A DNA stretch of 64,000 nt from assembly GCF_963921235.1 (NCBI RefSeq), contig NC_086097.1:56980001-57044000 (forward strand), read 5' to 3'. Of this stretch, positions 6,081 to 59,551 are shown one piece after another. Within the stretch, counting starts at the first letter, position 1. The number at the start of each line of letters is the position of its first letter. The position numbers and the translations under genes are program-made. Origin of the DNA: Mobula hypostoma. Lineage: Eukaryota. The notes beneath the pieces are model-generated. The model was not told the DNA's origin, searched no databases, and worked only from the letters and a program-made list of their open reading frames with translations.

Positions 6081-9000
6081 GTATGTGGCTTACTGATAGA
6101 TGAAATTTCAAGCTTTATCAGCTAATTTTGATTTGAATTTCAAACATAATAACTTCTGATGAAGGATATTTTATAGTATGCTAAGTCTATTTTTGGTATT
6201 CTGTTGTCTAGGTGCTCTTTAAGCATGACAATTCTACACAAGTTGTCCAAGATGACCAAGTAAAAGGCCCATTGCGGGTATGTACTGCTTTTTACTGATG
6301 CTGTGCAAGAATTCCTCCAAGAAATACACAAAATTTGTACTTGTGCAGAAATCTACTTTATACCAAGGCACTTTCTTCCTCTTCTGCCACATTAGCTGGT
6401 TGTATCGAAATCTCTCTGCAATTGCCAATGTGAAAATCTATTCTCCAGATGCTGCTTTTCTCCTAGGATTGACCCTCTTTTAAATTTTCAAAAAGAGCCA
6501 TGAGAGATATTTTGCATTATCTAGCTGGCCTATAACTGGCCCTCAATGAGCTGCACTTTGAAGTTCTGGATTTAATCAAAGTGAAAATAGTTAATATTTT
6601 TCTGTGTTTGATTCAGATTGGAATTGTGTGGGGAAGTAAGTTTCCAGGATACTGAAATAGTGTATTTATGAACAGAGCCCAGTTTATTTATTTGGTAGTC
6701 TGGAGCAGAAAGATTTATGTCTCAAATAAAACTAATAGATATAGTGAAATCAAGTCCTGACGAAGGGTCTTGGCCCAAAACGTCGACTGTACCACTTCCT
6801 AGAGATGCTGCCTGGCCTGCTGTGTCCACCAGCAACTTTTATGTGTGTTGCTTGAAATTCCAGCATCTGCAGATTTCCTCGTGTTTGCGTTTTGAAATCA
6901 AATTTGATGATTTGGTACTGCTAAATTGCATTCAAAATAACACCATTGATTAATCTGGCTTGTGACAATGTTAGGCTATTGAATCCATAAGACGTAGGAG
7001 CAGAACTAGGCCATTTGGCCTATAGAGTCTGCTCTGCCAATCAATCATGGCAGATTCTTTTTTATTCTTCCCCAGATCCTGGCCTTTTCCCCACAACCTT
7101 TGATGCCATGTCCAATCAAGAACCTATCAATCTCTGCCTTAAACACACCCAACGACCTGGCCTCCACAGCTGCATATGGCAACAAATTCCACAAATTCAC
7201 CAAACTTTGGCTAACAAAATTTCTCCGCATCTCTGTTTTGGAAGGGCGCCTCTCTATCCTGAGGCTGTGCCCTCTTGTCCTAGACTCTCCCACCATGGTA
7301 AATATCCTTTCCATATCTACTCTGTCTAGGCCTTTCAACATTTGAAAGGTTTCAATGAGATCCCCCCTCATCCTTCTGAATTCCAGCGAGTACAGACCCA
7401 GAGCCATCGTATGATAACCCTTTCATTTCTGGAATCATCCTTATGAACCTCCTCTGGACCCACTCCAATGCCAGCACATCTTTTCTAAGATGAGGGGTCC
7501 AAAACTGTTCACAATACTCAAGGTGAGGCCTCACCAGTGCCTTATAAAGCCTCAGCATCACATCCTTACTTTTGTATTCTAGACCTCTTGAAATGAATGC
7601 TAACATGGCATTTGCCTTCCTCAACACCGACTCGACCTGCAAGTTATCTTTGGGGTGTTCTGCACAAGGACTCCCAAGTCCCTCTGCATCACAGATTCCT
7701 GGATTTTCTTCCTGTTTAGAAAATAGTCTGCACATTTGTTTCTACTACCAAAGTGCATGACCATGCATTTTGTGACATTGTACTTCATTTGCCACTCTCT
7801 TGCTTGTTCTCCTAATCTGTCTAATTCCTTCTGCTTCCTACCTGTTTCCGCAACACTACCTGCCCCTCCACCAATTTTCGTATCATCTGCAAACTTGGCA
7901 ACAAAGCCATATATTCCATTATCTAAATCATTTATATATAGCATAAAAAGAAGTGGTCCCAACACCAACCCCTGTGGAACACCACAAGTCAATGGCAGCT
8001 AAACCAGAAAAGGATCCTTTTATTCCCACTTGCTGCCTCCTACCAATCAGCCAAAGCTCTAACCATGTTAGTAACTTTCCTGTAATACCATGGGCAGTCT
8101 CATGTGTGGCAGCTTGTCAAAGGCCTTCTGAAAGTCCAAATATACAACATCCGCTGCATCCCTTTTAGCCATCCTACTTGTAATTTCCTCTAAGAATTCC
8201 AACAGTTCATCAGGCAGGATTTTCCCTGAAGGAAACCGTGCTGACTTTGTACTTTCTTGTCCTGTGTCACTAAGTACTCCATCACCTCATCCTTAACAAT
8301 TGACTCTTAACATCTTCCCAAGCACGGAGGTCAGGTTAACTGGTCTATAATTTCCTTTCTGCTGCCTTCCTCCTTTCTTAAAGAGTGGAGTGATATTTCC
8401 AATTTTCCGGTCACTTTTGAACAGGTCATACCTCCCCTAGAAGAGATCCCAATGAACCAAGAACCTGAAGCCTTGCCCCCCTGCACCAACTTTCAGCCAC
8501 GCATTTATTCGCCAGATCATCCTGTTTCTACCCTCACTGGCATGTGACACAGGCAGCAATCCAGAAATTACTACCTGGGAGGTCCTGCTTCTCAGCTTTC
8601 TACCCAGCTCTCTGAATTGTCTTTTCAGGACTTCTTTGCTTTTCCTTCCTATCTCATTGGTACCAATATGTACCAAGACATCTGGGTACTCTCCCTCCCT
8701 AAAATGTTGTGGACATCATCTGAGACGTCCTTGACCCTGGCACCTAGGAGGCAACATACCATCTGGGTGTCCCTTTCATGTCCACAGACTCTCCTGCCTG
8801 TTCTCTGCATTATTGAGTCCCCCATCACTACAGCTCCCTTCTTCTCTTTCTTTCCCTTCTGCACCATGGACCCATGCTCAGTGCCTAGAACCCGGTTGCT
8901 GTGGCATTCTCCCAGAAGGTTGTCTCCCACAAAAGTATCCAAAGCGGTATACTTATTTTTGAGGGGAATGGCCACAGGTGTGCTCTGCTCTAACTGCCTA

Positions 9001-12000: not shown

Positions 12001-15000
12001 TATTGGATATTTATATCCTGGGGAAATGATCATGACAGTCTATGATGCTTCTCATGATTTAAAGTAAATATCAGGTCTTCCCTCTGACTCTGACACTCTC
12101 GTGAGAACAATTCGAGACAGTCCAAACTTTTCTTGTAGCTTATACCCTCTAATCCAGGCAGCATCCTGGTAAACTTCTTATGCACCCTTTTCACAGTCTT
12201 CACATGGTTCCTAAAATGGGGTGACCAGAATTATATGCAATCCTCCAAGTGTGGTCTGGCTGAAGTTTTATATAGCTGTGGCATTATACCTGTACTCTTG
12301 TACTCAACACCCCAGCCAACAAAGGCAAGCATGCCATATGCCTTGTTTACCTGCCTATCTATTTACATCCCCAGTTTTACTGAACTATGGATCTAGACCC
12401 CAAAGATTGCTCTGTACATCAATGCTATTAAAGGGCCTACCATTAACTTATACTTTCTCCTTTCATTTGATGTCCCAAAGTGCAACACCTCACGCTTGTC
12501 TGGATTTTAAAATTGGGAGCTCTAATTGAAATTTGCAGGTAGCAGTAGGATTCATATTCTGGGGGCGGGGGGCATAAGGTAAAGATTATTCTAAGTCTAA
12601 TAATAATGCTGAACGCCTTTAATTATACTTTGCAACTTTGGTGCAGGGCATAGGTAGCAGAGTAAAGTAGCAGGGTAGAAGATTGGCTGACTGGTAGGAG
12701 GCAAAGAGTGGGAACAAAGAGTGCCCTTCCTGGTGGGCTGCCAGTGATTAGTGGTGTTCCGCTTGATTCAGTGTTAGGACCATTTCTTTTCACATTATAT
12801 GTCAATGATTTGGATGACGAAATTGATGGCTTTGTGGCCAAGCTTGTGGACGTTACGAAGATAGACAAAGGTGCAGGTAGTGTTGAGGAAGCAGAAAGTC
12901 TGCAGAAGGACTTAGAAGTGGTGAATGGAATATGGTGTAGGGAAGTGTATGGTCATGCACTTTGGTGGAAGGAAAAAAGGCACAGATTTTTCTAAATGGC
13001 AATTTTTGATTTTCAAAAATCAGAGATGCAAAGAGATGTGGATGTCCTCATGCAGGATTCCCTTAAGGTTAACTTGCAGGTTAGCATTCCTTTCAAAGAA
13101 TAGAAAAGCAAGGATGTAATGCTGAGGCTTTGTAAGGCATTGGTCTGACAGCACTTGGGGTATTGCGAGCAGTTTTGGGTCCCTTATGTAAGAAAAGATG
13201 TGCTGGCATTGGAGAGGGTACAGAGGAGGTTCATGAGAATGATTCCGAGAATGAGAGTTAATGCATGAGCGTTTAATGGCTCTGGACCTGTACTCGCTGG
13301 AGTTTAGGAGAAAGAAGGGGAGTCTCATTGAAACCTATCAAATATTGCAAGGCTGAGATAGGGTGGATGTGTTGAGGGTGTTTTCTGTAGTGGGGGTGTG
13401 TAGGAGCAGATGGCACAGCCTCAGAATAGAACAGTGTACATTTAGAACAGGGATGAGGAGTAATTTCTTCACCAAGAAGGTGGGGAATCTGGAATTCATT
13501 GTCACAGATGTCTGTGGAGGCCAAGTCATTGGGTGTATTTAAAGCAGAGGTTGATAAGTTCTTAATTAGTAAGTGCATTGAAGATTGTTGAGAGAAGGCA
13601 GGAGAATGGGTTTGAAAGGGGTAATAAATCTGCCATGATGGAGTTGCGGAGCAGACTGGAGTTGCTGAATGGCCTAATTCTGCTCCTGTGTCTAATGGTC
13701 TTATGATCTAAATAGTTAAATTTGCACAGAAATGTTAGAGATATTATTTATTCATTTTCCAGAGAAGTAAAATGAATTCATGTTTTGTTTCCACTGAAGT
13801 CCACTATGCACTTGATCTAAACTTTTCCAAAGTTTATTTGCTTATGCATTGTCACCAAATGCATGTCTTTTAATCCAGCATGAATTGAAGGAACAAGTTA
13901 AACATGTTTGTTGTAGCCATGGCATATATTCTGAATTTAATTAATGATAATTCAAATAACCAGTTCCCCTTTTTTGCCCCGTCTTTGCACCTGTATCTGC
14001 TTTATAGTTTTTTAAAAATATGTATGTATCCAATCTCAAATCATCCATGATAGCACCGTGACACCGTTTGTGCTATTGGTTGTTCCTTGAAATCTTTTTT
14101 ACCTTTTGGTGTCAATTTCAATCTGCTCTCATTTCTGATGAATTTTGATGAAAGGTCATTGAAGTGATACAGAAACTGTCCCATGAGACTAAAGTGTTCT
14201 TACAGTAAACTGTAATCAGTTCTCAACAGGAAATTGAGATATATTAGGTAGATACTTCCTTTGACAATAGGGTTCTAAAATCCTAGGCTGACCATATAGT
14301 AGTTATCTGTTCTGTATTATGCTATCATTAGGTATAATATTAGAGTTATGTGTTCAAATAGTTACTGCTTTTCACTGCTGCATGTTCCATAAATTTGAGT
14401 GGCTGTACAACACCTAGAAATAGATAACTGCTTTTAAGTTCATTATGCAGTGTGGCATTGAAAATATAGAAGGGTAAATTTATAGCACTAGCAGTTCACT
14501 GTGATATAATATTACAATATGAATGGGATAATTATATAAATTTCAATATGAGTTCAAGTTTCCATTGGCTTCATTAAACATATTTGTTGCCTTCAATTTG
14601 GAAATCTGCACTTTATTAACACCAATCAATGTATTCTTTGTTATCGCTAGTTCTGTTATGAAGACATTTGAGTGCATTTTAAATACATTGCATACATAGT
14701 ATGAATAGATTTATGTCTTAATATATTGCTGAAGCCACTTTTCTTTATAATTCCTCATACATAACATTTTTCATCGTGCTTTCAAAATAGTGCTGTCGTA
14801 CTGCATTCCAGAAGTACTTTTGGCAAGATTTAAAAGCTTGATGAGACAGTTAGTGTCAAGGTATTTCCTCCAGATGAATAAACTTGTTAACAAATGCCAT
14901 TTTGCACTTTTAAGCCACATGGTAACTGCGACATTGTTCTGGACCTTTGTTGTTTATGCTGACACTTTCTAGGAACTAAATGGGGATTCTTGACTTTTAA

Positions 15001-18000
15001 CTGATATATAGAGGTAGTAGGTGAAATAATGTTTACTTTGAAATCCACATCAAAGTTGCTGGTGAACGCAGCAGGCCAGGCAGCATCTCTAAGGAAGAGG
15101 TACAGTTGACGTTTCAGGCCGAGACCCTTCGTCAGGCTGCCTGGCCTGCAGCGTTCACCAGCAACTTGGATGTGTGTTGCTTGAATTTCCAGCATCTGCA
15201 GAATTCCTCGTGTTTACTTTGAAATCCAGTTGGTTAGTTTGGTTTACATCAAAAAAACTTTGAATCTTCTAAATGGGAGAACGTGCGTGTGAATAACAAC
15301 TCTGCAGACATGTCATTGTGTGGTTAGTGTGTAAATTTAAGGAATTATTTCCAGTTGGTTTTATCCCCACTCAACTTGGGCTTAGAACTAAAAGTAGGCA
15401 TTCATTGACCAGTGACCTTTGCCTTCTAAAAGCTGGGAGGTGGGACTTGCATTCTGGGGGGAAAAAAACCTTTATCATGATTTTCCATAATACAAAATCC
15501 TGTCATCCGCACATTTCTAAAGAAATTGGAATTGAAGAAAAGTCTACTTAATCACTTGTACCACGTAAATTCCACAAGTGCAAATTTTATTGTGTATCTG
15601 TAAAATTTGGGTAGTGATTTGTGAATTTGAATTTGTCTGCACTGAAACCTTAATGGGTTGAGCATGGTGTGGAGTTTTCTAAATTTTGCTTTTTTAAAAT
15701 CTATTTTCTGATTCTTGGCATCTCTGGAAAGCATAACATTTATTGCACATTCCTTATTGCCCATGAGGTGGTGAAGGGCTCCACCTTCTAAAGTTGTTAA
15801 AATCCTGCTAGTGACAATGTTGTTGTTATGCTGATGAGTATCTACTCGCAGGGTGTGGACTCGACATTGATAATGATTGGCAATGTTTTGTCCATGTACC
15901 TACTGCCCATGTCCTCAAGAAAAATGGTGATTGCCTTTGATAGCACATTGGATGATCACTTGGCTGATTGAGAGTAGACTAATTAGGAAGTTAATAACCT
16001 GTGGGTCCTGCCCATAGTGAACTGAACATACCAAGAAACCTTTCCACATTTTAGAGACAAGTGATGAAATGGAACATGTTGTTGAGAAGCATAGCTGATT
16101 CTGGACTTGGGTCTTTAGTATTAAAGCTGTGAAGTTGTCTGGTCTCGGCCTTTACTCCACAGACGTTGTTTTACTAAGTTGTATTTGAAAACATCCAGTT
16201 CATGGACTTATTTTTAAATGTTATGATACTTTAATGTTTCTTCATCATTTCTAAATATCTCTGATCACAGAAATTTATAATTAATGAAAAATGCCTTTTC
16301 TCAGCAGGCCATTGTGATGGCTATTGGTAAGAGTTATAATTTTCATTAATTGCAATAGGAATAAGAAAATTGAGTTAGAAAGAGCAGATATGTTGATATT
16401 AAGATGCAAGTCATGGCAGTAAGATATGGAGAGCAAGCTGTGGCCCATGCAGCAGGCTTCCCCTTTAAGCGTAGCAGATGATGAATCCAAAAGGATGGCA
16501 GAATCTGGCATGACAGGAGTTGCAGGTTGGCATTGAACTCAACATAGGATTGTCTTAGAGACTCCAGCTCAGTCCTGCTGAAGGATTTCAACCCGAAACA
16601 TCAACCGTACTCTTTTCCGTAGCTGCTGCCTGGCCTGCTGAGTTCCTCCAGCATTTTCTGTGTGTCGCTGGATTTTTCCTTAGGGTTTACTCTCGAAGCC
16701 TTCTCTATGAATGGGTACAATCGTAAGGCAGCAGAGGTTTGAGATCAGAGATTTCCCTCTCCTAGATGAGCTGCCAACTGCAGCTGACAAGCCCCATCTG
16801 CCTGAAGTGACTGGTTTTAAGTGCCTTTAACATGCCTTTTGTACCTTCTCCTGTCAGTAGAAACAATTCCACCAGGCTTAGTAACGAAGCCCACACATGA
16901 AGGCCAGAAGCTGGACTTGGTTGTCAGAGGCTTTTTGAGATGCATACCATTGGGAGCATTTAATGTAGTAGGAGTTTATCCCCATTACCTTCCCTGGCTA
17001 TAACAACCGTAAGGAACCAACTATGTCAAAGTTAAAGATGAGGTGGTTGAGATGCTGGGTAGGATAATCAGAATTACTAGATTGTCTGGCAGTACTCTTC
17101 TCCAGATCTGAAGGGGATAGATTGTAGTTTGCTTGGGAACGTGGAGACTGAAATTCTGGAGGCACTGGCTACAGATTCTAATTAGAGCTGGAGAAAGGGA
17201 AAGTAGCAGACCATGGGGAATTGCAAGTACACTGTGTTCTGGTTAACTCTGTGCCATTAGTTAATCAGGGCAGTTACTTATTTGGGACAATTCTTAAAGA
17301 ACAAGAACTAATGAAGAAATTAGCCATGATTCACTTTGTTTATTTGAGACACTATGCCACTTAATTGGGACAAGTGACCATTGTGAGCATTTTCTAACTA
17401 GTGGCAGTAACCTGCACTTGAGTGGCTATTAGACAATTCACAGTGCTTAAAGTAACAGTTTTTAAATGGCATCTGTTGCATGTGTTTGTGTTCAAAAGCA
17501 GTGATTCTTTGTCACTGATAGTCAGCGAGAAATAAGTAGTAAGAATTGTTTTGCTCATAGCGGTTTCAAGCATTCAGGCTTAGAGATGTGAGAAACAGCT
17601 AGAAGTGAGATTGTTTCATTTTCACTACTTCAAGTTAAGAACTACAAAGAATTTGAAAGTATCGGCAGTCATTTCGATTGTTACAATGAAAATGAAGATT
17701 TAGAGGATTCAGTTGTGAAAAGCATTGTATGAAGACAGTCCATAATCTACATTAGGTATCTGCACTGATTTTGTTCACTTACAGTTAATGAAAAGAACAT
17801 GGTAACGTAGACTGGATTAATTCCTCTGTCAATAACTGTTAGGAACTAATACAGGTTGAGCACCCCTTGGCACCCCTTGTCCGAAATGCTTGGAGCAGGA
17901 AGTGTTTTGGATTTCAATTTATTTGTTTATTTTGGAATATTTGTATCTCTATAATAAGTTATCTTTGGGATGGGACCCAGGTCTAAACATGAAATCCATG

Positions 18001-22043: not shown

Positions 22044-25000
22044 ATATATATATATTGAGAAACTGATTGTGTCCTTGCATGTAAATCACAAAGTTGATGT
22101 GTGGTTACAGCAAGCAGTTAGGATGACCATTGGTATGTTGACTTCTTTTTTGACAAAGATCTGAATACAAAAGTCGAGAAAATGCTTGTATGTTGGAACC
22201 TAGGGGGCTGCCCTAGGAATATTGTGTCAGGGCCTGGTCTCCTTACCTATGGAAGATTATATTTGTAACAAAATAAATACATCAAAGATTCACCAAATTG
22301 ATTCTTGGAATTAGTAGAGTGGAGAGAAGTGTTGAATGGTGGAGCAGACTTGAGGGTCTGAAAGTCCTTTCCTGCTTCTAGTTCTTGAGTATGTGTCGCA
22401 CTTGGTATGAGCAAGCACTTGCCATTTGCACCAAGTGAGTTACTTTTCTTTCATTCTACAAGGCTGATTTCACTGGCGAAGATGGTTCTGAAATGAGTGA
22501 GCTAGAATAAGTTGGATAGGCAAAATTGTTTTGCAAGCCTTTATCAGTTTGCAAAGTTTGTCTCCCATCTTTGATATTTTTCAAAGCTGTTAATGGAGAA
22601 ACAAAATGTAGATTGGGATAACTGCTTTCCAGAACACCTGCATTGAGTATGTCAGATGACCCTGTTTCTTGTTACTTACCATTCTAATTCTCCTTTAACT
22701 TTCCACCATGGCCTATTGTATTGTTGCAGTGAGGCCTAACACAAGCTTGAGGAATAGTACTATCTTCGATTGGGCACGTTGCAGCCTTTCAGATCCAGTA
22801 TCGAGATCGAGTTTTGTAACTTTAGATAAAACTCATATTCTTCTGCCTTTGACTGTTTTCCTCCTTTCCATTAGCATAATGTGACCTGCTGAGCATGTTA
22901 GAGAGTCCTACACTGCACATTTTCCTTTGTTATCATACTCAATGGTGCCATTAATGTATTGACCTCTATGTACTGCCTTGCCCAATCACAGTAATCTCCT
23001 TTGCCTTATTATTCTTTCCTCCACCTCTGCAACTGAAGAATACTCAGCATGAGGCATTAAATCTGTTTGATTTCTCGCAAATGTTGCAAAGTTTTGCAAT
23101 GTTTTCCGTCTTCTGTTTTTTGATGTATTCAGACACTTTGAAAATCGTTAAAAATTTAAAAATAATTTCCAAAATTTTAAGAAATGAAAAAAACACTTGA
23201 AATATATTGTAAAAATTAGAGGAAAAAGAAATACAGGTCGACCTTCACTAATTCGACTACCTGTAATCCGGTTCCTTCGATAATCTGGCACTGATTATGC
23301 TTAGTGTGATCCTTCCGTAATTCGGCATTTTCACTAATCCGGCACTCCTCAGGTCCCAATGGTGCCGGATTAGTGAAGGTTGACAATATAATGGAAAATT
23401 ATAACTTGTCTAATTTTGCCATTTCTTTCCTGAATCTTTAGAATTCAGAAAGTCTGAATCTGTGAGCATTTTGATTAGTGTTAATGTTGCGAAGTCTAGT
23501 GCTCAAAAGTAGGTGAATGGGCAAAGAAGTGACAGATGGAATACTGTGTAAGGAAATGTATGGTCATGCACTTTGATAGAAAGAGTAAAAGCATCGACTG
23601 TTTTCTATACAGGGAGTGAATTCAGAAGTCAGAAGGGCAAAGGGACAAGGGTGTCTTAGTACAGAATTCCCTAAAGCTTAACTTGCAGGTTGAGTTGGTG
23701 GTAAGGAAGGCAAATGCAATGTCAGCATTCATTTTGAGAGGACTGAAATGTAAAAAATAAGAATGTAGAAAAGAAACTTTATAAGGCATTGGTCAGACCA
23801 CATTTGAAATATTGTGACCAGCTTTGGGCTTTGTATCTAAGAAAGGGTGTGTTGACATTGCAGAGGTTCCAGAGGAAGTTCACAGGAATGATCCTGGAAA
23901 TGAAAGTGTTAACATATGAGGAGTGTTTGGTGATTTCTGGCCTGTACTCACTGTAGTTTAGAAGAATGTGGGGGGGCGGTGCGGGGAGTGAATCTCATTG
24001 AAACCTACTAATATTAAAGGGTCTGGATAGAGTGGACATGAAGTGGATGTTTCTGATAGTGGGAGAGAATAGAACCAGAGGGTCATGGCCTCAGAATAGA
24101 AGGATGTCCTTTCGCCCCTTTAGAACAGAGATGGGGAGGAATTTCTTTAGCACGCAGGTAGTGAATCTGTGGAATCATTACCACAATGGGTTGTGGAGGC
24201 CAAAGCAGAGATTGATAGTTCCTTGATGAGTAAGGGTGTCAAAGGTCATGGGAGAGAAGGCTAGGAAAATGGGTTTGAGATGCATAATAAATCAGAAATA
24301 ATCAAATTGTGGAGCAGACTCAATGGCCAAATAGTGTAATTCTCCTATGTCATATGGTCCTAAAGTAGTCAAGAATCCTGGGATAATTGACCTTTAAATT
24401 CAGGTTAAGTGCATTTGACAATACTGCTGCCTCCAGATCAGAATGACATCAGTTCAATTTTATTCTTGGGGTTAAATGTGTAATCTAAGTTAACAGTAAA
24501 ATTCATGCCGAATGAGGGAGATAAAATCTTGAGTGCGAGGTAGCAGTCAGCCCTTCAAGTGGACATAGAAGAAAGAACTGCAAATGCATTCTCCCAGTGT
24601 CACATTCAACCACTGTCATTTAAGAGTACTATTGAATTTACTGATGATAAAATGACTAATCTTCATTTTATTTCTGTATGAAATATTGTTTAAATTGCTT
24701 AAACTTGTCTTGAAATTTATTTTATTTAAGTTTATTCATTTATGGAATGGCCAGTATTTATTGCCCATCCCTAGTTGCCCTTGAGAAGGTGGTGGTGAGC
24801 TGCCTTGAACCGCTGTAGTCCCTGAGGTGTAGGTACACCCACAGTGCTGTTAGGAAGGGAATTCCATGATTTTAACACAGCGACAATGAAGGAATGGTGA
24901 TATGTTTCCAAGTCAGGATGGAGGATGACTTGGAGGGGGATTTACAAATGGTGGTGTTCCCAGGTATCTGCTGTTCTCATCCTTCTATTTGGTAGTGGTC

Positions 25001-28000
25001 ATGGGTCTGGAAGATGCTGCATTAGGAACTTTGGTGTGTTATTGTAGTGCATCTTGTAGAAGTACACACTGCTGCAACTGTTTGTCGATGGTGGAGGGAT
25101 TGGATACATGTGGAAGGGGTACCAGTCAAGGGGGCTGCGTTGTATTGGATGCTGTCAAGTTTCTCGAGTGTTGCTGGAGCTGCACTCATCCAGGTGAGTA
25201 TTCCATTACTCTCCTGACCTGAGATGGACAGGCTTTGGGGAGTCGGGAGGTGAGTTACATGCTTCAGGATTCCGAGCCTTTGACCTATTCTGGAAGCTAT
25301 GGTGTTTATATGGCTAGATCAGTTCAATTTCCTGTCAAAGGTAATCCCCAGGATGTTGATAGTAAGGGATTCAGTGACGATTTGCCACTGAATGTTAAGG
25401 GACAGTGATTAGAGCCTCCCTTGTTGGAGATGTTTATTGCCTGGCACTTGCATGGCTCGAATGTTACTTGCCACTTGTCAGCCCAAACCTGGATATTGTC
25501 CAGGTCCTGCTGCATTTGGGTATAAACTACTTCAGTATCTGAGGAGTCACGAATGGTGCAGAACATTGTGCATTCATCTGCGAACATCCCCACTTCTGAC
25601 CTTATGACAGAAGGAAGACCATTGATGAAGCAACTGAAAGATGGTTGGTCCTAGGACTCTTCCCTGAGGAACTCCTGCAGTGATGTCCTGAGGGTGAGAT
25701 GATTGACCTCCAACCGCCAAAACCATCTTCCTTTGTGTCAGGTATGATTCCAACCAGGAGAGGGTTTTCCCCCTAACTCCCATTGACTCCACTTTAGTTA
25801 GGGCACCTTGATGCCATACTCAGTCAAATGTTATTTTGGTCCAAGTTTGGACGAAGGAGGTGATGAGGTCAGGAGCTGAGTAGCCTTGATGGAACCCAAG
25901 CTGGGCATCCATAAGCAGGTTATTTCCGAGTAGGTGTTGATAACCCCTTCCGTTACTTTGCTGATGATTGAGAGTAGGCTGATAGGGTGGGAATTGTCTG
26001 GGTTGGACTTGTCCTGTTTCTTGTGTACAGGCCGTACCTGGGTAATTTTCCACAATGCCGGGTAGATACAGGTGTTATAGCTGTACTGGAACAGCTTGGC
26101 TAGAGATGTGGCAAGTTTTGGAGCACAAGCCTTCAGGACAATTGTGGGATTTTGTCTGGGCCCATAGCCATTTCTTGATATCACGTGGAGTGAATTGGAT
26201 TGGCTGCATACTGACATCAGGGATGCTGGGGACTTCTGGAGGAGGCCGAGCTAGATTATTTACTCGGCACTTCTGAATATTGTTGCAAATGCCTCAAACT
26301 TACCATCTGCACAGGTGTGCTGGGCTCCTCTCATTGGGGATGGGGATACTTGTGGGGCTTCCTCCTCCAGTGAGTTATTTGATTGTCTACCACCACTCAC
26401 GGCTAGATGTGGCAGGACTACAGAGCTTAGATCTGATCAGTTGGTTATGGGACCACTTAGCTCTGTCTGTTACTTTCTGCTTATGATGTTTGGCATGCAG
26501 GTAGTCCTGTATTGTGGTTTCACCAGGGTGGTGTTCTTGGCCTGCCCTCCTGCACTCTTCATTGAAGTAGGGTTGATCCCCTGGCCTGGTGGTATTGTTA
26601 GAGTGGGGGATATGCCACCACGTCTCATAGATGCCCAGTTTTAGGCTGCTAGATCTGTTCGAAGTCTATCCTATTTAGTATAGTGGTAGTGCCTTGCAAC
26701 ACGGTGGAGGGTTTCTTCAATGTGGAGATGGGACTTAGTCTTTACAAATACTGTCTGGTGGTCACTTTTACCAATGCTGTCATGGACAAGTGCTTTCGCG
26801 GCAGGCAGGTTGGTGAGAATGAGGTCAAGTGTATTTTTTCCTCTTGATGGTTTCCTCATCACCTGCTGTAGTCCTAGTCTGGTAGCTATGTCCAGTAGGA
26901 CCTGACCAGCTTGGTCTGTGGTGGTCCAACCGAGCCACTCTCGGTGATGGACATTGAAGCCCCCACCCAGAGTACATTCTGTGCCCTTGCCACCCTCAAT
27001 GCCCCCTCCAGATGCTGCTTAATATGGAGAAGTACCAATTCATCAGCTGAGGGAGGATGGTACCTGGTAATCAGCAGGAGGTTTCCTTGCCCATGTTTAA
27101 CCTGGTGCCGTGAGACTTCATGGGGTCCAGAGTCAATGTTGAGAGTTGCCAGGGCAACTCTCTTTCTACTGTATACCACTGTTCCACCACGTCTGCTAGA
27201 TCTGTCCTGCCAATGAGACCGTACATACCCAGGAATGGTGATGATGGAGTCTGGAATGTTACCTGTAAGGTATGATTCTGTCAGTACAACTATGTCAGGC
27301 TGTTGCTTGACTAGTCTGTGAGACGGCTGTCCCAACTTAGGCACAAGTACTCAGATGTTAGTCAGAAGACTTCACAGGGTCGACAGGGCTGGTTCTGCCG
27401 TTGTCGTTTCTGGTGTCTTAAGTCGATGCTGGGTTATCCATCCAGGTTCATTCCTCATTATTTTCTTTTTAGCGGTTGGATACAACTGAGTGGCTTGCTA
27501 GGCCATTTCACAGGGCATTTAAGAGTCAACCACATTGCTGTGGGTCTGGAGTCACACATAGGCCAGACCAGGTAAGGATGGCATGATTCCTCCCCTGAAG
27601 GATATTAGTGAACCAGATGGGTTCTTACAACAATCGACATGGGTTCATGGTTATCAGATATTTTTATTGACTTCAAATTCACCATCTGCCATGGTGGGAT
27701 TCGAACTAATGTCCCTAGCGTATAATTGGGTCTCTGGATTACTGATCCAGTGGTAATTACCACTGTGCTAAATTTAAGGTTCCTTAAATTTCCAAGATTC
27801 TTTTGCCTCTCAGGATTCTTAAAATTACTGATTAATTCATTCTGATTATTTAACATGCTGTTACTTGAATTATGAGTGTTGCAATAAGTGATGGTTTTTG
27901 CCTTGGTGATTTTCAGTAAACAATGAAAGATTTGTTATTGGATATTTTGCGATTTGTGTGCTTTAAAAACTGGTATTTATAGTTTATCATTCTTGTTGAA

Positions 28001-37000: not shown

Positions 37001-40000
37001 ATGAGAAGAGATTGGATAGGATGAGTTTGTTTTCTTCACAAAGGAATGACCTGATAGGTGTGGAAAGAGTAGATAATTGGAATCCTTTTCCCATTGTAGG
37101 AGTATCAGAAAATAATGCATAGGTTTGGGGGAGGGAGAGAGGAGTTTTAATGGAAATTTAAAGGAAATAAATTTCACAGAGAGTGGATAATACCTGGAAT
37201 GTTGTCAGACAAGATGGTGGAGTCAAATATAATCAGTATGTTTACGAGAGTATAAATATTTAAATAAGCAAAATATAAAAGCAGTTAATGCAGGTAAATG
37301 GATTTAGTGTGTGGGTAAAAAGGCCAGCATGGATGCAGTGTTTTCTGTGTTGTACAACACTTGGAATTTGACCAGTAGCATGAGGATCTTCCAATAAAAT
37401 ATAAATTACTGTAACTATAGGCTGTCTGACTTTTAATAATGGTTGGATTAAGATAGTAAGATACCCATTTTGCAATTGACAATTTACACAAAGGTCTGCT
37501 TTCTGAGATCAATGCTTACTTTGGTTGGAAAATGTATTTAAACAAGATACTAAGCTGTACCAATTTGGCTACTGAATGCATTAACAGTAAACCTCTGGTA
37601 GTTTATGTAACGGACTTTCTTTGTGTTTTCCACATCTCTAGACCAAAACAGAAGGGAATTTGCATGTTCTGTTGATGAATCAGCTGTTTGGTTTATGATG
37701 GCACATCAATTAAATTATCAGTCCGGTAACCCATATCCCACTTTGGCAACTGGAATTTACACTTGGTTACGTCCTTATAATGATGACCATATTGGCAGGG
37801 AAACCAATTCGGTAATTCCTCCTAGAGATAGGAAACTCATGTATTTGGTGTTACCAGTATGTGAGTGGAGACCTATAGTATTTTGAAATCAAGCACATTG
37901 TGCAATTTCACATTTTCCTGACATCATTTTTTTTTGTTGAATGTGGATGTGTAGTTAAACCCCTCTGCGATCTCTATAGCCTGCTTATGTTATCTTGCAT
38001 TTCTACTCTGGGGTCTTTCCTTGAATTCCATACTTCACTGAATTGTGCAGTTACCTTCACCAGAAGGACTGCAGTAGTTGATGAAGATGGCACATCACCA
38101 TCACCTTTGCCAATAGAAATGGGTAGATCCTGCTAGCCTTGCCATTGATGCTTAGTATCTGTAGAATAAACTGTAGTGTATTACTTATTTGATTGTTAAA
38201 CTGTATTCCAGTATCAGCAGAGTCTGATAGCTGTGCAGGATGTTGTAATTGGATTTATAAATACCCTATCAAGTGATAACTTCACAGCACTAGACCAGAT
38301 GCTTTTTTTTAATATGTGATGGTTAATATGTCTATCACTAGGTAGAGGAGGAGCTAGATCCAGAAGAGAGAGACAATTTCTTGCAACAACTCTACAAATT
38401 CATGGAGGATAGAGGTAAGGACTTTTCTTAAAATTGAAGTCAGTATTTGTATTGTGTGTGCATATTTTTAAGTATTAATGGTACAATGTTTTTAATTTTG
38501 TTCAGATAAACAGGTGAAAGTGATGTCAAAAGTACTTTTGTGATTGTAGGGCTTTTTTTGGTTTTCACCTAAGTTTTGTATTTAAGTTTGTAGTTAATTT
38601 GTATACATAACACTGTATTCTAGACCTAAAGGAAGCTTTCAACCCATGCTGCTTTTCAATGATACTATGATATCAGTACCATAAATGTTGATAGTGGATC
38701 CTATCCAATTTTTAAAAATATTTCATTCACCACAAAATAGATTAATTTGCGAAAACTTAGCTGAGTGATGTGCTCAGCTGTGGTTTACCATCAATATACT
38801 TGGACATTATAACCGTGATGTTTGATGTACAGTATGTGAATACTTCCATCACTATAGTTAGAATAAATACCAATATGGTTGATCATATTATGAACTCTTG
38901 GGAACAATATGACAATATGTTTATTTCTTCGTATTCAAAAAATCTTTAAATTGGTAAGCAATTGTATTATATTTTCCAGGAACACCTATCAATAAACCAC
39001 CAGTACTAGGCTACAAAGACCTGAATCTTTTCAAACTCTTCAGACTGGTGTATCAACATGGTGGATGTGACAATGTGAGTTCAATTTAATTTTACAGTGC
39101 CTTGAAAAAGTATTCGGCCCCCACAACTATTTTCACATTTTACTGTCTCATTTTCTTAATTTAAAATATATTGAAGTGAGAATATTTGAACTAATTTCAA
39201 AACATTGTGCATCATGTCAAATCAAAAGAAAAATTCCAAAACCTGTCATCAGTTTACTAAAAATTGAAATCCAAAATTGTGTGGCTGAAAAAATATTAAT
39301 TCTGTTTGTAATTACAAGCTAATTTTTCTCAGGTGCAGTATGTGTATTAGATAAACAACTCACCCGATCTGTTGATGTAGAAAGTTGGAGGATGACCTGT
39401 TTTTCAATGAGTTTGTAAGAATAAGTACCCCTTCTCTCTGTAAGCTCTGTATGATAGATTTTCAACAAACAAAACCAAAAGGAAGACAAAAGTGTATTGC
39501 AAGTCAGGGAAATGATAATAGAGAAGCACAGATCAAGGGAATGTACAAGACCATCTCAAAGGCATTGAACATATCTGGGAGCTCAGTGCAGTCCATCGTG
39601 AAAAAGTGGAAAAAATATGAAACCACAGCCGCACTGTTTAGGTAAGGCCATCCCTCTAAACTTAGTCGCCAGAGAAGAATGGCACTTGTAAGAGAGGCTA
39701 CGATGATGCCAACAATCACTGTGTGTGAGCCACAGAAGTCAGTGGCTGCAACTGGAGATGAATTTCATAGCTCCACAATCACTAAGGCGTTGCACGAAAA
39801 GAGTTTTTATGGGAAAGTGGCAAGGTAGAAGCCATGGCTTTAAAAAAACATACCCACTGCCCATAAAGACTTTGCAAAACGTCACTTAGAAGATACTGTA
39901 AATATGTGGAAGAAGGGCTTATGGTCGGCTGAGACTAAGTGGAACCTTTTTGTCTTAACACTAAGCAATACGTGTGGCATAAATCTAATAGTATCAGCCA

Positions 40001-46000: not shown

Positions 46001-49000
46001 TGGGCATATATATGTTTGCACTAACATTAAGAGTTCTTGGTAATATTTAAATAACAAATCCTTGAGCAATATTACCTCTGATATAAAAACAAAAAAATGC
46101 TGGAAGCATCTAGCCACATCTGGGAAAATAGAAAAGAGAGTTAATGTTTCAGGTCAAAGACTTTTTGCTGAAACTTTATTTCCAATTGACTAGAGTCGTG
46201 TGATTGCTTGTACTGGTGTAGAAAATTAGATTGATTAACTATTTTAGATTTTGACTGTTGATGAAAGATATATGCAATACAGCCATTAAGTTCTGCTTAT
46301 TTCTGCAGATTGACAGTGGTTCTGTATGGAAGCAAATCTACATGGACCTCGGTATTCCAATTCTGAACACTGCTGCATCTTATAATGTGAAAACAGCATA
46401 TAAGAAGTAAGTGGTATCGATGGACCTAAGTTTTCCATGTAAAGTATGGTTCAGTTATTGGCTTTCCTTTAATGTACAAATTAAAGCATTTGTGGTTCTC
46501 ATGCACCATTTGCACTTATATTGTCCTCACCAATACTGCTGTAAACCTTGGGATGATAGGGTGATAGTGGTAGTAAAATAGTTGAAAAGGAGGATCACAA
46601 CAAAGACAAGCATAACTGCAAATGAACTTACTTGAAGCAACACATAATTACAGAACAAATCGTGCTGTTGTGGTCTGATTTGCATTGTGCCGACTTCCCA
46701 AACAACACATTCTTTAGAGCTTGCTTTAAGTTTGGTTCTGTTAAAACTAAATACCATTATCTACACTTAACACTCAGCAAGATGGTCTTGATCAATAAGC
46801 AGAATCACAAATATTTTTGCGATTTCTTAAGTTGCATTTTGATGATATGAATAATGTAACACTTCAATTTATATCTTTGACCAGAAGGACCCTAATGGGA
46901 GGTAATTTTTGTGCTTAAACTCGCATATTATGCTAAGAACCTCTTCCAAGGAAAATGACATCAAGGGGAGAATAGACGAATACAATAAGTAGTTCCTTTG
47001 CTTTTTTAAAAATGTTTCTCCAGTGCTTTATGAGTCCTCTTTAGTACTGTTGCATAATATTTGGATGGCTATTTAAACACCAGTTTTCCTAAGCTCTACT
47101 TCTTACCATGGGATTATTATTTTCTTGTGCTGATAATAGATAATTCGGTTACAAATGAAAAAGGAACAGTAACCGCATAAACATAACTACTACTACAACA
47201 ACTCTTTTTTAAAAAAAAATGTTTTGAGGCTCCTTCCATAAAAGGTGCCTTTAGCAATATGTTCTGATTTTAAGGGTTGACCATTACATATTCCTGAAGA
47301 GGAAAGTAGACTATGGCATAATCTATAAACGCTAAGCATTTTTAGAAACAATGTATAGCGCCTTTTATGTCCCAAAGCTCTTTACAAACTGAAGTGTTTG
47401 CAACTATCAGCATGAGGTACTAAATGGATGAGCCTTCTCTGCCTCCTCCTGAAGTCCTTATCATCACGGATGCCAGTCTTCAGTCAATTCGTTTCACCCC
47501 ACATGACATCCGAGAAACGGCTCAGCAAAGGCCATGTGTCCTGACAGCATCCTGGCTGTAGTGCTGAAAACCTGTATTCAAGAACTAGCCACACCCCTAA
47601 GTTAGCTGTTCAAGTACAACTAAAACACTGGCATCCACCTGACAATGTGGAAATTTGACCAGGTATGTCCTGTCCACAAAAAACAGGACAAATCCAACCT
47701 AACCAATCACTGCCCTCTTAGCCTGCGCCCAGTTGTTAGCAAAATCATGTTAGTTGAAATGATGTGAGTAAAATTCTCACCGCTGATTTTCTTCCCAGTG
47801 CTCATTTAGGTTAATGGGACCACTTGGTTCCTGGCCTCATTACAGTCTTGGATACAAGGATTGAATTCTGGAGCCAACATAAGGGTGACTGCTCTTGATA
47901 TCAAGACAGCACTTGATTAGAGGCAGTGCTAAGGAACCCTACTGATAGTATTATCAGTGAGGAACAGAGTGAAAATCCTGGAATCATACATAGCAGAATG
48001 GAAGATGGTTATGGTTTTTGCAGGCTAGTCTTCAAAGCTGCCAGAACATAGTCCTTGTGGCAGCATCCTTGGCTGAAGTATCTTCGACAAGTTCATTAGT
48101 GACTTGATTTTCTGTCAGAAGTGAAACTGATTGTAGCTTGAAAATGTCCATCTCAAGGAAGAGAACCTAGTATTTTTTAGTAACTTGATGTTTTGTGGCA
48201 TTGCTGCTGCTGTGTTCCTCTTTAGCAGTATTCTGCAATCCACCATCAGCCAGATTGGGCTAGTCAATTAAGTCATGTCTACAAGAGCAGGTTAGAAGCT
48301 GAATGTTCTGTGCTACATTGCTTATCTAATGATTCCTCAAATTATTTACAAGGCTTCATTTCTTAGGTGGGCACAGTTGCAAAAATAGAAATTTGACATT
48401 ATGGAAGATAAAGCACTTGGTTGCTTACGGGTGTCTCAGCATCTGTCCTGGTCATGGATTTGGACTGCAACAATGTTTCTATCCTTCCCACCCCTGCCCC
48501 AGCCCCCGCCCCCCCCAGAAAGCAACAACTTTCCTTGGTTAGTAAGTCAGTGGCAGTAAGATGATGGGATCATCAAGTTTCCTGCCAAGTCTTTCAGCAT
48601 CTTGACTTGGACTAGTGTTCCTTTCTGTGATTTTTTGCTATGTTAAAATTCTAAAATTTCCAGAGAGCATTGTGGAAATAACAGCAGCTTATGTAAAGAA
48701 CCGCCATAGTCTTCACCATCTAGGGATCAGCAAAATGCCTTGCCAATGATGCCCATGTTGTGAAACTAATTATTAAGGAATTAAAAGATTGAAGGTAGTA
48801 ATTGTAACTTTGAAATCAGGCCAGTGAATGGATGTGACAAAAACAATGACTTTAAATTGTTTGCATTTATGGATCCTTGGAGTACAGAATGTGTGAACTG
48901 ATTTTTTTTTATGCAAAGCTAGAATGTGCCCTAATATTAAGACATTTATCAAGATCTTAAGGCATTATAAGACTCATTTGAGAAGTAGACGTGAATAGTT

Positions 49001-53799: not shown

Positions 53800-55320
53800 T
53801 GACCATAACTTCCAACACCAGCATTAATGTCCGTTCCCTATTGCCCTTGAGAAATTGTGGTGAGCTAGATTTTTTTAAATTGCTGTGGTCATACTGTTGA
53901 AATATTCCCAAAACGCCATTGGGCAGGGACTTTCAGCATTGATATTCAATGTTGATGAAGGAATAGTAAACTGTTTCCAAGTCAGGATGGTGTGTGAGTT
54001 TGACAGAACCAGCAGAATGCTGCCCATGTCTGGTGGTAAGGATTTTGAAGGAAAGTGCAGTCGAACAATTGCATATTTTGTAGATGACTTCCCCTTTAGT
54101 CACTTTATGTCAGTGATGGATGGAATAAAAGTTAAGTGTGGTGGATTGAATGCCATGTTCCAAATGGCACTGAGCTACTTGCAAGTTGTTTGGATTGCTA
54201 TCATCCTGGCTATTTGGATGTATCCTGTTGTACTCCTGACTCATTCCTTGTAGGAAATGGAAAGACTTGGGGTATTGGGGGTTAACCACTCACCACTGGA
54301 TACCTAGCTTCTGAAGTGGTTGTGTTTATTATCAGAGAATGTATACAGTATGCAGACATCCGCGAAAAACAGAATAACCCCAAAAGAATGAATAACAAAA
54401 AAAATTTGAAACCCAAAGCCCCCTCCCCCTCCCCTGCACAAGCAGCAGCAGGCATCAACACATCAACCTTCCCCCTTTCATCTCCCACCCATTTCAGCAA
54501 AAAGTATCATCGCCTACCAAGCAACAGCAGAGCACCCAAAGAGAGACCATGATCTGCAGTCAACAAAACTATTGTCTACCCAACAGTTCAACATGCCACA
54601 GTCTCTCGCTCTCGCTCTCTCATTCTCTCACTCTCTACAAGGCACAGAGATATAACACCCATTTTCACAGTGAAAGGGGAGACTGACAGTTGCTGTTATG
54701 ATATTACAGTATGGTGCATCGTTTTCCCATACTCATTTGGCAACACTAGCCTGAAATCGGTCATCACAAGGGCAGTACCCCGGAGGCACCATCTTCCAGG
54801 ACGTGCCTGGAGAATGTTGGGAAATGGTCGGCCAACAAGCTCCAGGAACAGGAACTCATCCACCATAGTAAAAAAAAATGCAGTTTGAGTGCCACTTGCA
54901 GATCAGGACCTCAATAGAACCCCACCCACCTTGAAAAGGAAATAAAGAGACATTAAGGGGAGGAATTAAGTTGGTTTTTGCAGAAGAGCTCAAAGTTGCA
55001 GCCACTTGATGCCATCTTAACTCCGCCCACACTGACTTATTATTATAATTGAGCCTGTTGAGTTTGTGGTTACTAGTGATGCCCAAGATGTTAGTGATGA
55101 AGAAGTTAGTGATGTTAATTGAATTGAATGTCAGGGATAGACGGTTGGATTCTTGTTCCTAACAATCATTGCTTCATATACATTGCACAGTGTTATTGAT
55201 GCTTCCATCCATGTCTGAATGTTGTTAAGGTCTTGCTTTGCGCAGACGTAGACTGCTTCATTTGTTGAGGAGCTGTGAATAAAATTTATCATTTCCTGAT
55301 CATCAGTGACCATTTCCACT
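53800..55320 (-). mobile_element. Old copy of the 24731-27771 LINE family, interrupted at ~54325-55040
   Basis: ccctattgcccttgaga...gtttccaagtcaggatggtgtgtg; ORF 55131..55319 KQDLNNIQTW. Confidence 0.7.
54325..55040 (-). mobile_element. Second Rex1-type non-autonomous element
   Basis: tttattatcagagaatgtatacagtat tail; C/A-rich repeats (cccctccccctcccctgcacaa) like 20720-20940; AAGATGGC head on minus strand at ~55018. Confidence 0.45.
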
Positions 55321-58380: not shown

Positions 58381-59551
58381 AAGGAAGACTCCAGCACTCT
58401 GCCAGAAATTCAAGAGTGCTGGGAGTAGAAGTAAGTGTAGTCAGTATTACTAAGGAGAAGCTGCTTGGGAAGCTGAAAGATGTGAAAGTGGATAAGGCAG
58501 CTGGATTTGGTGGACTACATTTCGGGGTCTGAAAGAGGTAGTTGAAGAGATTATGAAGGCATTGGTGGTGATAATTGAAGAATCGTTAGTGTCAGGAATG
58601 ATTCCAGAAGAGTGTAAAATCGCAAATGTCACTCCACTGTTTAAGAAGGGAGGTAGAAGACAGGAAATTGTAGGCCTGTTAGTCTGATTTCAGTGGTTGA
58701 TAAGATTATGGAGCCCATTGTTAAGGGTGAAGTATCGGGGAATTTGGAAGCACATCATAAAATATACTGATGTCAGCATGATTCCCTTAAGGAAACGTCT
58801 TGCCTGACAAATCTGTTGGAATTTTTTGAGGAAATAACAGATAGGATAGACAAAGGAGAGTCAGTGGATCTTGTTTACTTGGATTTTCAGAAGGTTTTTG
58901 ACAAGGTGCTGCACACGAGTCTGCTAAACAAGAAATTAGCTCTTGATATTACAGGAAAGGTATTGGCACAGGCAGAAGATTGGCTGACTGGCAGAAGGCA
59001 AATGTGGGATTAAAGCAGGCCTTTTCTGGTTGGCTGCTGGTGACTAGTAGATGTTTAGCAGGGGTTGGTGTTGGGTGTCCACTCTTATGTTATACGTAAA
59101 TGATTTGGATGACAGAATTGATGGCTTTGTGGCCAACTCTGCAGGTGATGCAAAGGCAGGTAAAGAGGCAGATAGTATTGAGGGGACAGAGCATCTGCAG
59201 AAGGACTTGGACAGGTTGGGAGAATGGGCAAAGAATTGGCAGATCGAATACTGTGTAAGGCAGTGTATGGCCATGCACTTTAATAGAAGGAATAAAAGCA
59301 TAGACTATTTTTTGAATGGGGAGAGAATTCAAAAATTGGAGATGTAAAAGGGCTAGAGGGGTCCCATGCAGGATTAGCTAAAGATTAACTTACAGACTGA
59401 TTTAGTAATAATGAGGGAAAAACAATGATGGCATTCATGTTGGGAGGACTAGAATATGAAAACCAGAATGTAGTGCTGAGGTTTTGTAAGGCATTGCTGA
59501 GACAATATTTGGATATTGTGAGCAGTTTCGTAGCCCGTGTCTAAGAAAATA

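Follow-up and report, generated by a model that had tools for sequence, protein, structure and literature searches.

The stretch of DNA analysed here, referred to as the window, comprises 64,000 nt of Mobula hypostoma (NCBI RefSeq assembly GCF_963921235.1, contig NC_086097.1, positions 56,980,001 to 57,044,000 of the forward strand) and carries on its minus strand, at 24731..27771, a decayed copy of a long interspersed nuclear element (LINE) with a tRNA-type 5' end. The head (27685..27771), delimited by the fixed 5' end and the column coordinates of the family, lacks the first ~7 bases, GGGGAGA, with which the family begins. It contains an A box-like motif of RNA polymerase III (Pol III) promoters (27760..27770, family position +10 to +20), a hairpin resembling an anticodon arm with a 7-nt loop (27733..27749, from the folds of copies and majority), an extra hairpin (27714..27730), the arms of which are swapped in the Squalus consensuses (fold, and published rows compared by eye), and a B box-like motif (27697..27707), located 52 nt after the A box in the family majority. 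Both box motifs were defined from the sequence and from column support across copies. A non-coding body of ~210 nt follows (27474..27684; majority, fold, and published rows by eye), which is a candidate ribosome-entry element. The coding part consists of an open frame (27373..27473) that has no in-frame AUG in the family majority and encodes an Arg/Lys-rich, basic N-terminal extension, with similar N-termini in distant relatives, and of one open reading frame (ORF) for an apurinic/apyrimidinic (AP) endonuclease, a reverse transcriptase (RT), and a CR1-group C-terminus (24771..27372). The short 3' tail (24731..24770) has AATAAA followed by an A-rich end, and 17 nt of it are deleted in the window copy.

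Compared to the family majority, the window copy is broken by stops, frameshifts, and seven deletions of 11–55 nt. An earlier note on this DNA had placed the A and B boxes at the positions given above and had counted a single sense-strand run of four T (T4; plus-strand 25719..25722, not present in the family majority) against 12 runs of four A, as well as 5 sense T4 runs in a CR1 at 6985-8415; inspection and recount agree. The AP endonuclease and RT remnants were likewise recovered, as Pfam detected both domains in natural pieces (PF14529 and PF00078 on sister copies) and the motifs could be placed in the window copy. The length of the non-coding body had been overestimated at ~330 nt, since the ~100 nt before the endonuclease are open frame. 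The proposed 7-bp target site duplication, ATTTAAG, is present at both ends (plus strand; 5' side 27772..27778, 3' side 24724..24730) and plausible for this copy, but long duplications are not general in the family: the longest word shared between the flanks of 14 head-to-tail copies was 3–7 bp, with a mean of 5.1 compared to 4.4 in mismatched pairs. A match of at least 7 occurred in 2.7% of mismatched flank pairs, which is the chance level for the window duplication.

The recurrence of the head-to-endonuclease junction, named in the earlier note as a check, was explored by a genome search with a 672-nt query spanning head and endonuclease. Among 40 scored candidates of 1176, the junction was found at 39 other loci with 82–88% identity and is not unique to this locus; 21 of these loci, fetched at length, reached the 3' tail. 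In strict BLAST comparisons, 13 of 14 head-to-tail copies began at base 1–2 of one shared 5' end, beyond which their flanking DNA is unrelated, and the 14 copies had A-rich 3' ends. As the note had stated for the window copy, no copy carries an ORF1, and none has a longer shared upstream sequence. Because the query favoured joins of head and endonuclease, a second sample was drawn from exact matches to a 20-mer of the body (30 of 47). By eye tally, 19 of these 30 loci, a number that includes the window and a 67% relic, run on into the endonuclease, five join the 3' part via internal deletions with four different junctions, and six are fragments. Contigs of four other organisms cover the whole element in all bins and end at the same 5' end, where depth falls from 567–2292 to at most 22; in two of the four, contigs bridge body and endonuclease. 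A column majority was built from 35 copies (the window and 34 of the 39 loci, five with large insertions being excluded). It is 3264 nt long, and individual copies are 6–9% away from it. The element thus moves as one unit of 3.26 kb, from the fixed 5' end through the two box motifs, the body, and the single ORF to the tail.

No second young headed family was found in the Mobula hypostoma genome; the locus L081 and the window segment 47380-48360 are without close sisters. An older relic (L081 / L120:570-2872, 67–73%) has the same order of head, body, and endonuclease. Its T-rich windows (four T in five positions) number 3 versus 9.7 and 2 versus 5.9 expected, which is not significant.

The proposal of the earlier note that short interspersed nuclear element (SINE)-like forms could be internal-deletion products of this LINE is supported by short head-body-tail forms with several junctions. 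Contigs of one other organism contain a strong body-to-tail joint, and those of a fifth a loose end. In the genome of the window, the body motif has 47 exact matches compared to 33 for an endonuclease motif. An abundant SINE form was not found in this genome (0 exact matches for one junction pattern, 1 for another). The loci L088, L099, L094, L074, and L087 are short or internally deleted. Four different junctions occur among them, one of which is common to L088 and L099 and suggests a small SINE-like subfamily.

Judged by its sequence, the family is elasmobranch Zenon, a CR1-group LINE already catalogued (Stuart et al. 2026, PMC13343379). Seven published rows (HypSab_Zenon-1, CarCar_Zenon-1, RhiTyp_Zenon-1, ScyCan_Zenon-1, and SquAca_Zenon-1/2/3) carry the body motif and match the head, body, and ORF start (first 400 nt, by eye). 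Zenon LINEs were described in five elasmobranchs as lacking ORF1 and having a poly-A tail (PMC13343379); the elasmobranch lengths of 2886–3314 nt, the missing ORF1, and the A-rich tail resemble the window family, whose single AP endonuclease and RT ORF without ORF1 is the same Zenon trait. Neither tRNA nor polymerase III comes up in the main text of that paper, nor does a promoter, an AUG, or a start codon; tRNA and promoter are likewise absent from the first 400 characters of the supplement's cells. The lack of ORF1 is a known Zenon trait; the tRNA-type head, the purge of T-runs, and the missing AUG are not described in PMC13343379. In a FastTree tree of 28 of 65 RT stretches, calculated without a named Zenon reference, the family grouped with single-ORF relatives, lepidopteran proteins among them, and lay apart from the CR1 of the same genome. 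The whale shark and the horn shark yielded close protein fragments. Pieces of the family endonuclease are part of two gene models of the horn shark (P0019 and P0037, a CWC25 homolog and a zinc-finger protein), probably as annotation artefacts.

Lepidopteran Zenon is similar in being a single-ORF CR1-group LINE of ~3.3–3.5 kb with repeated short deletion forms of 5' and 3' parts, but its deleted derivative Persaeus was reported to be without tRNA homology and without a Pol III promoter (Wang et al. 2019, PMC6740152). Unlike the window family, the related frames analysed here show normal T-runs and a Met before the endonuclease. The 5' end of one distant single-ORF relative (L133:1-254) has a short motif in common with lepidopteran Zenon 5' ends, which may be related to hepatitis delta virus-like ribozymes; it had no Rfam match, and Rfam likewise matched no ribozyme in the 5' ends of the relatives.

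At the 5' end of the family, A and B box occur with tRNA-like spacing, with a joint chance of ~4e-6 by arithmetic. The anticodon-arm-like hairpin is presumably Thr(AGT)-like. In the published rows (by eye, first 400 nt), the A box starts all seven elasmobranch Zenon rows from five species and a full B box is found in six of the seven; both boxes are kept in the five species though the sequence between them varies. The hagfish and coelacanth rows, likewise compared by eye, are without the head, and no A and B box pair was present in any of the 17 upstream regions of distant single-ORF relatives checked.

The window family shares with tRNA-derived SINEs (SINE2, MetaSINEs) the A/B-box head, a conserved body, and a LINE-type tail (Nishihara et al. 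2016, PMC4824008), but SINEs are 100–700 bp long and non-coding (PMC10886601). With 3.26 kb and a frame of ~975 codons, the family has the A/B-box 5' end of a SINE2 but is neither short nor non-coding. The resemblance of head, body, and tail to a MetaSINE, suggested in the earlier note, was not supported: MetaSINE heads are reported to be tRNA(Thr)-like (PMC4824008), but the 66-bp Meta-domain was not seen directly after the head by eye comparison with the supplement consensus of PMC7245038, and MetaSINE identity was rejected. Published Meta and Deu domain consensuses are both unlike the body (by eye), and motif searches for a MetaSINE link in the supplements of two other papers gave no match. 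Only RTE and Vingi 5' parts have been found in SINE bodies (Kojima 2018, PMC5786205); other SINE-LINE pairs are described in PMC5499810, PMC11481361, and PMC10294476.

Runs of T are depleted in the family. Under a base shuffle, the window copy has 12 TTT-runs compared to 25.4 expected and 1 T4 compared to 5.3, and the majority no T4 (4.8 expected), 7 TTT-runs (23.1), and 2 windows with four T in five positions (24.9). With protein and codon usage fixed, the majority still shows 4 TTT versus 12.0 and 2 such windows versus 12.1. Codons ending in TT are never followed by T (0 of 42), and codons beginning with TT never follow a T (0 of 31), for which the chance is about 1e-6. A-runs of the majority are near expectation. 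The TTT deficit was present in all 13 single copies tested. CpG decay as the source of the four remaining TTT codons was considered and rejected.

As a control, a CR1 majority built likewise from 19 copies of the same genome has 9 T4, 39 TTT, and 58 T-rich windows in 3247 nt. Seven natural CR1-like frames were near expectation under base shuffle, while three showed a mild TTT deficit under codon shuffle (p 0.02–0.03). Distant LINE controls came from 80 metagenome loci, of which 37 have a related frame of 500 aa or longer; the observed-to-expected ratio of T-rich windows was 0.51–1.88 in these 37 frames versus 0.10 in the headed family, and a clade-wide purge was rejected since distant relatives are normal. 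The scarcity of T-runs noticed in the window copy thus extends to the family, whose frequency is far below expectation also under the codon-shuffled null, with normal control LINEs. The loss is limited to the sense strand and, among the LINEs compared, to the headed family. For Pol III, termination at TTTT and TVTTT has been measured (PMC8466645).

The majority frame comprises 898 codons, a stop, and 76 further codons, about 975 in total, and relatives have 940–1050 aa. The stop carries a CpG-decay signature (TGA 12, CAA 4, CGA 2). For four published elasmobranch families, RT coverage of 94–99% and endonuclease coverage of 92–99% are tabulated (PMC13343379), and because of this domain coverage and its own length we take the ORF to have been in use. 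Phe accounts for 19 of its 975 residues (1.9%) compared to 2.3–7.3% in relatives, and TTA codons are absent; the T purge may reach amino-acid choice.

The 3' 150 nt of the body are nearly invariant across five shark and ray species (published rows, by eye). The fold of element positions 200–315, the last ~115 nt of the body, has a z of -2.4, and a predicted 7-bp helix (27527-27533 pairing with 27472-27478) ends at a GCT codon. No two-sided compensatory change was seen by eye in the published rows, and the body motif had no match in viral contigs. Upstream of the conserved GCT, two of the species have an interrupted frame: the Squalus row contains a stop and the Rhincodon row is shifted by one base (by eye). 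Between GCT and the endonuclease, four of five species retain the frame (21, 21, 21, and 18 nt), the Squalus row being off by one in an A-run (hand count). The first in-frame ATG of the majority is codon 291, downstream of the endonuclease, a feature that the earlier note had missed, and the 5' region contains 12 upstream AUGs. One of the out-of-frame AUGs (27449-27451) is conserved and opens a 46-codon frame overlapping the endonuclease start. The Arg/Lys-rich stretch resembles the N-termini of distant relatives (P0008, P0011, P0014, and L121); in distant single-ORF relatives, a Met immediately precedes the endonuclease. If uncapped, an RNA whose 12 upstream AUGs are all out of frame would need another way to start, and these features point to internal ribosome entry near GCT as a lead. 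Three of the 30 body-motif loci (L071, L086, and L091) stop exactly in the A-run after GCT (element position 313–314), possibly by internal priming on the A-rich stretch.

Taken together, the LINE family of which the window holds a decayed copy was probably autonomous, transcribed by Pol III, and translated without cap or AUG, and it probably sheds SINE-like deletion forms, a reading to which we assign a probability of about 0.68; Pol III-driven autonomy of the family is judged equally probable. Pol III transcription would be the one cause linking the fixed 5' end, the box motifs, and the strand-specific loss of T-runs in the headed family. TFIIIC would bind the internal boxes and Pol III would start at the 5' G, so that every full-length copy would carry its own promoter. 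T-run loss would reflect selection against premature termination, and transcription would continue as far as the first T-run outside the element. The uncapped RNA might recruit ribosomes through the conserved structured body, starting near the GCT codon behind it. In the CR1 group, binding of the protein to the 3' tail and target-primed reverse transcription are established, and the protein of this family would act in the same way. The short head-body-tail forms would be internal deletions moved in trans. The broader claim, that a shark and ray retrotransposon lineage relies wholly on Pol III, with the body as an initiator-independent ribosome entry site at GCU and SINE-like repeats as its deletion products, is possible and put forward tentatively.

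Several observations weigh against Pol III-driven autonomy. Neither ARAGORN nor Rfam calls a tRNA in the head, for which the extra hairpin and decay may be the reason. The 5' region has no Rfam match to a known internal ribosome entry site (IRES) family and as a whole folds no better than shuffles (z -0.7 to -1.8). An in-frame ATG ahead of the endonuclease occurs in 3 of 35 copies, the window copy included. Under the strictest null, with protein and codon usage fixed, the absence of T4 is borderline (0 versus 2.4, p ~0.05), and one weak TATTT terminator is left in the majority. The excess of synonymous changes among shared variants is only slight (31–33% versus 25%) and inconclusive for selection on the protein, and the copies, 6–9% diverged, are decaying neutrally. 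Furthermore, Pol III processivity is held to keep such elements short (PMC10886601).

One alternative alters the translation step only: the Pol III transcript would be read from the out-of-frame AUG at 27449-27451, and the main frame reached by frameshifting or reinitiation. This AUG, which opens the 46-codon frame in the window family, is present in the main rows of five species, and one Rhincodon gene model (P0006) joins both frames, but another (P0018) reads the main frame, which yields a basic N-terminus as in distant relatives. No canonical slippery heptamer was seen by eye, and silent between-species changes are ~3/6 in the main frame versus ~1/7 in the +1 frame (hand count). We regard such a start as unlikely.

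A split life cycle, in which Pol III makes the copied RNA and the protein comes from capped RNA polymerase II (Pol II) read-through or from spliced host transcripts supplying an AUG, would account for both the T purge and the lack of an AUG and would require no new mode of translation; the 12 upstream AUGs would block scanning of the element's own RNA. Yet the broken frame upstream of GCT (Squalus stop, Rhincodon shift) leaves no conserved acceptor in frame, a T-poor region makes a poor 3' splice site, and suitable host transcripts would be required in every lineage, so that we give this scheme a low probability. The same low probability is given to an ordinary Pol II Zenon with a SINE 5' end captured by template switching, whose boxes would be vestigial and whose T-runs would be avoided for RNA stability, splicing, or RT slippage. 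Pol II is the usual polymerase of LINEs (PMC10886601), SINE-LINE template switching is recognised (PMC4824008), and the missing Rfam tRNA match in the head fits such an origin. However, the purge is found only in the headed family and not in CR1 or the 37 other LINE frames, both boxes persist in five species despite changing sequence between them, and there is no other 5' sequence to house a Pol II promoter. A long non-autonomous SINE, transcribed by Pol III with the ORF as untranslated cargo and moved by another LINE, would agree with the lack of an in-frame AUG ahead of the endonuclease in the majority and of a clear within-family selection signal, but is very improbable given the retained ~975-codon frame with its single CpG-decay stop and the published RT and endonuclease coverage in four elasmobranch families (PMC13343379), as an unused frame would not be expected to last across sharks and rays.

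Among known systems, R2 and Perere-3 resemble the proposed autonomous Pol III element as single-ORF non-LTR (long terminal repeat) retrotransposons with an uncapped yet translated RNA, but rely on co-transcription from Pol I or Pol II promoters of the host and on release by a 5' self-cleaving ribozyme (PMC8501958). Rfam found no ribozyme in the window family, for which an internal Pol III-type promoter is proposed instead. In the intergenic IRES of dicistroviruses, a GCU codon and an A-rich stretch come after a structured RNA, and initiation occurs without AUG. Such IRESs fold as a triple pseudoknot that mimics codon-anticodon pairing ahead of the first codon. The possible likeness of the family's body to this IRES serves only as a lead, with no Rfam IRES match.

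Elsewhere in the window, three truncated relatives listed in the earlier note at 15715, 47415, and 53800 proved to be old 3' fragments and not close family members (79% identity over 47 nt, 74% over 337 nt on the plus strand, and 84% over 49 nt, respectively). No T purge was seen in the fragment 47385-48355. Another old 3' fragment of the family, absent from the list in the earlier note, lies at 38023-38100 (plus strand, 71% over 78 nt). Other CR1-like RT remnants are located at 6985-8424, 12675-12929, 55057-55319, and 58663-59299; the CR1 family of the first is highly abundant in the genome (18590 candidates).

The feature is real and belongs to a known LINE family whose architecture was not described in the literature searched. 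No description of a Pol III-driven coding LINE was found in the open literature, a search that lay outside Repbase, Dfam, and subscription journals. The textbook split assigns LINEs to Pol II, as mRNAs, and SINEs to Pol III, as short non-coding RNAs whose length is limited by the processivity of that polymerase (PMC10886601). If the proposed reading is true, a vertebrate lineage would make a natural Pol III transcript of 3.3 kb that codes for protein, which would break this split and would show a route by which uncapped RNA is translated. A head and body of SINE type would then function as the 5' end of a LINE, with terminators purged down to codon choice. This would give the conserved SINE-type body a testable function and mean that internal deletion can turn a LINE directly into a SINE.

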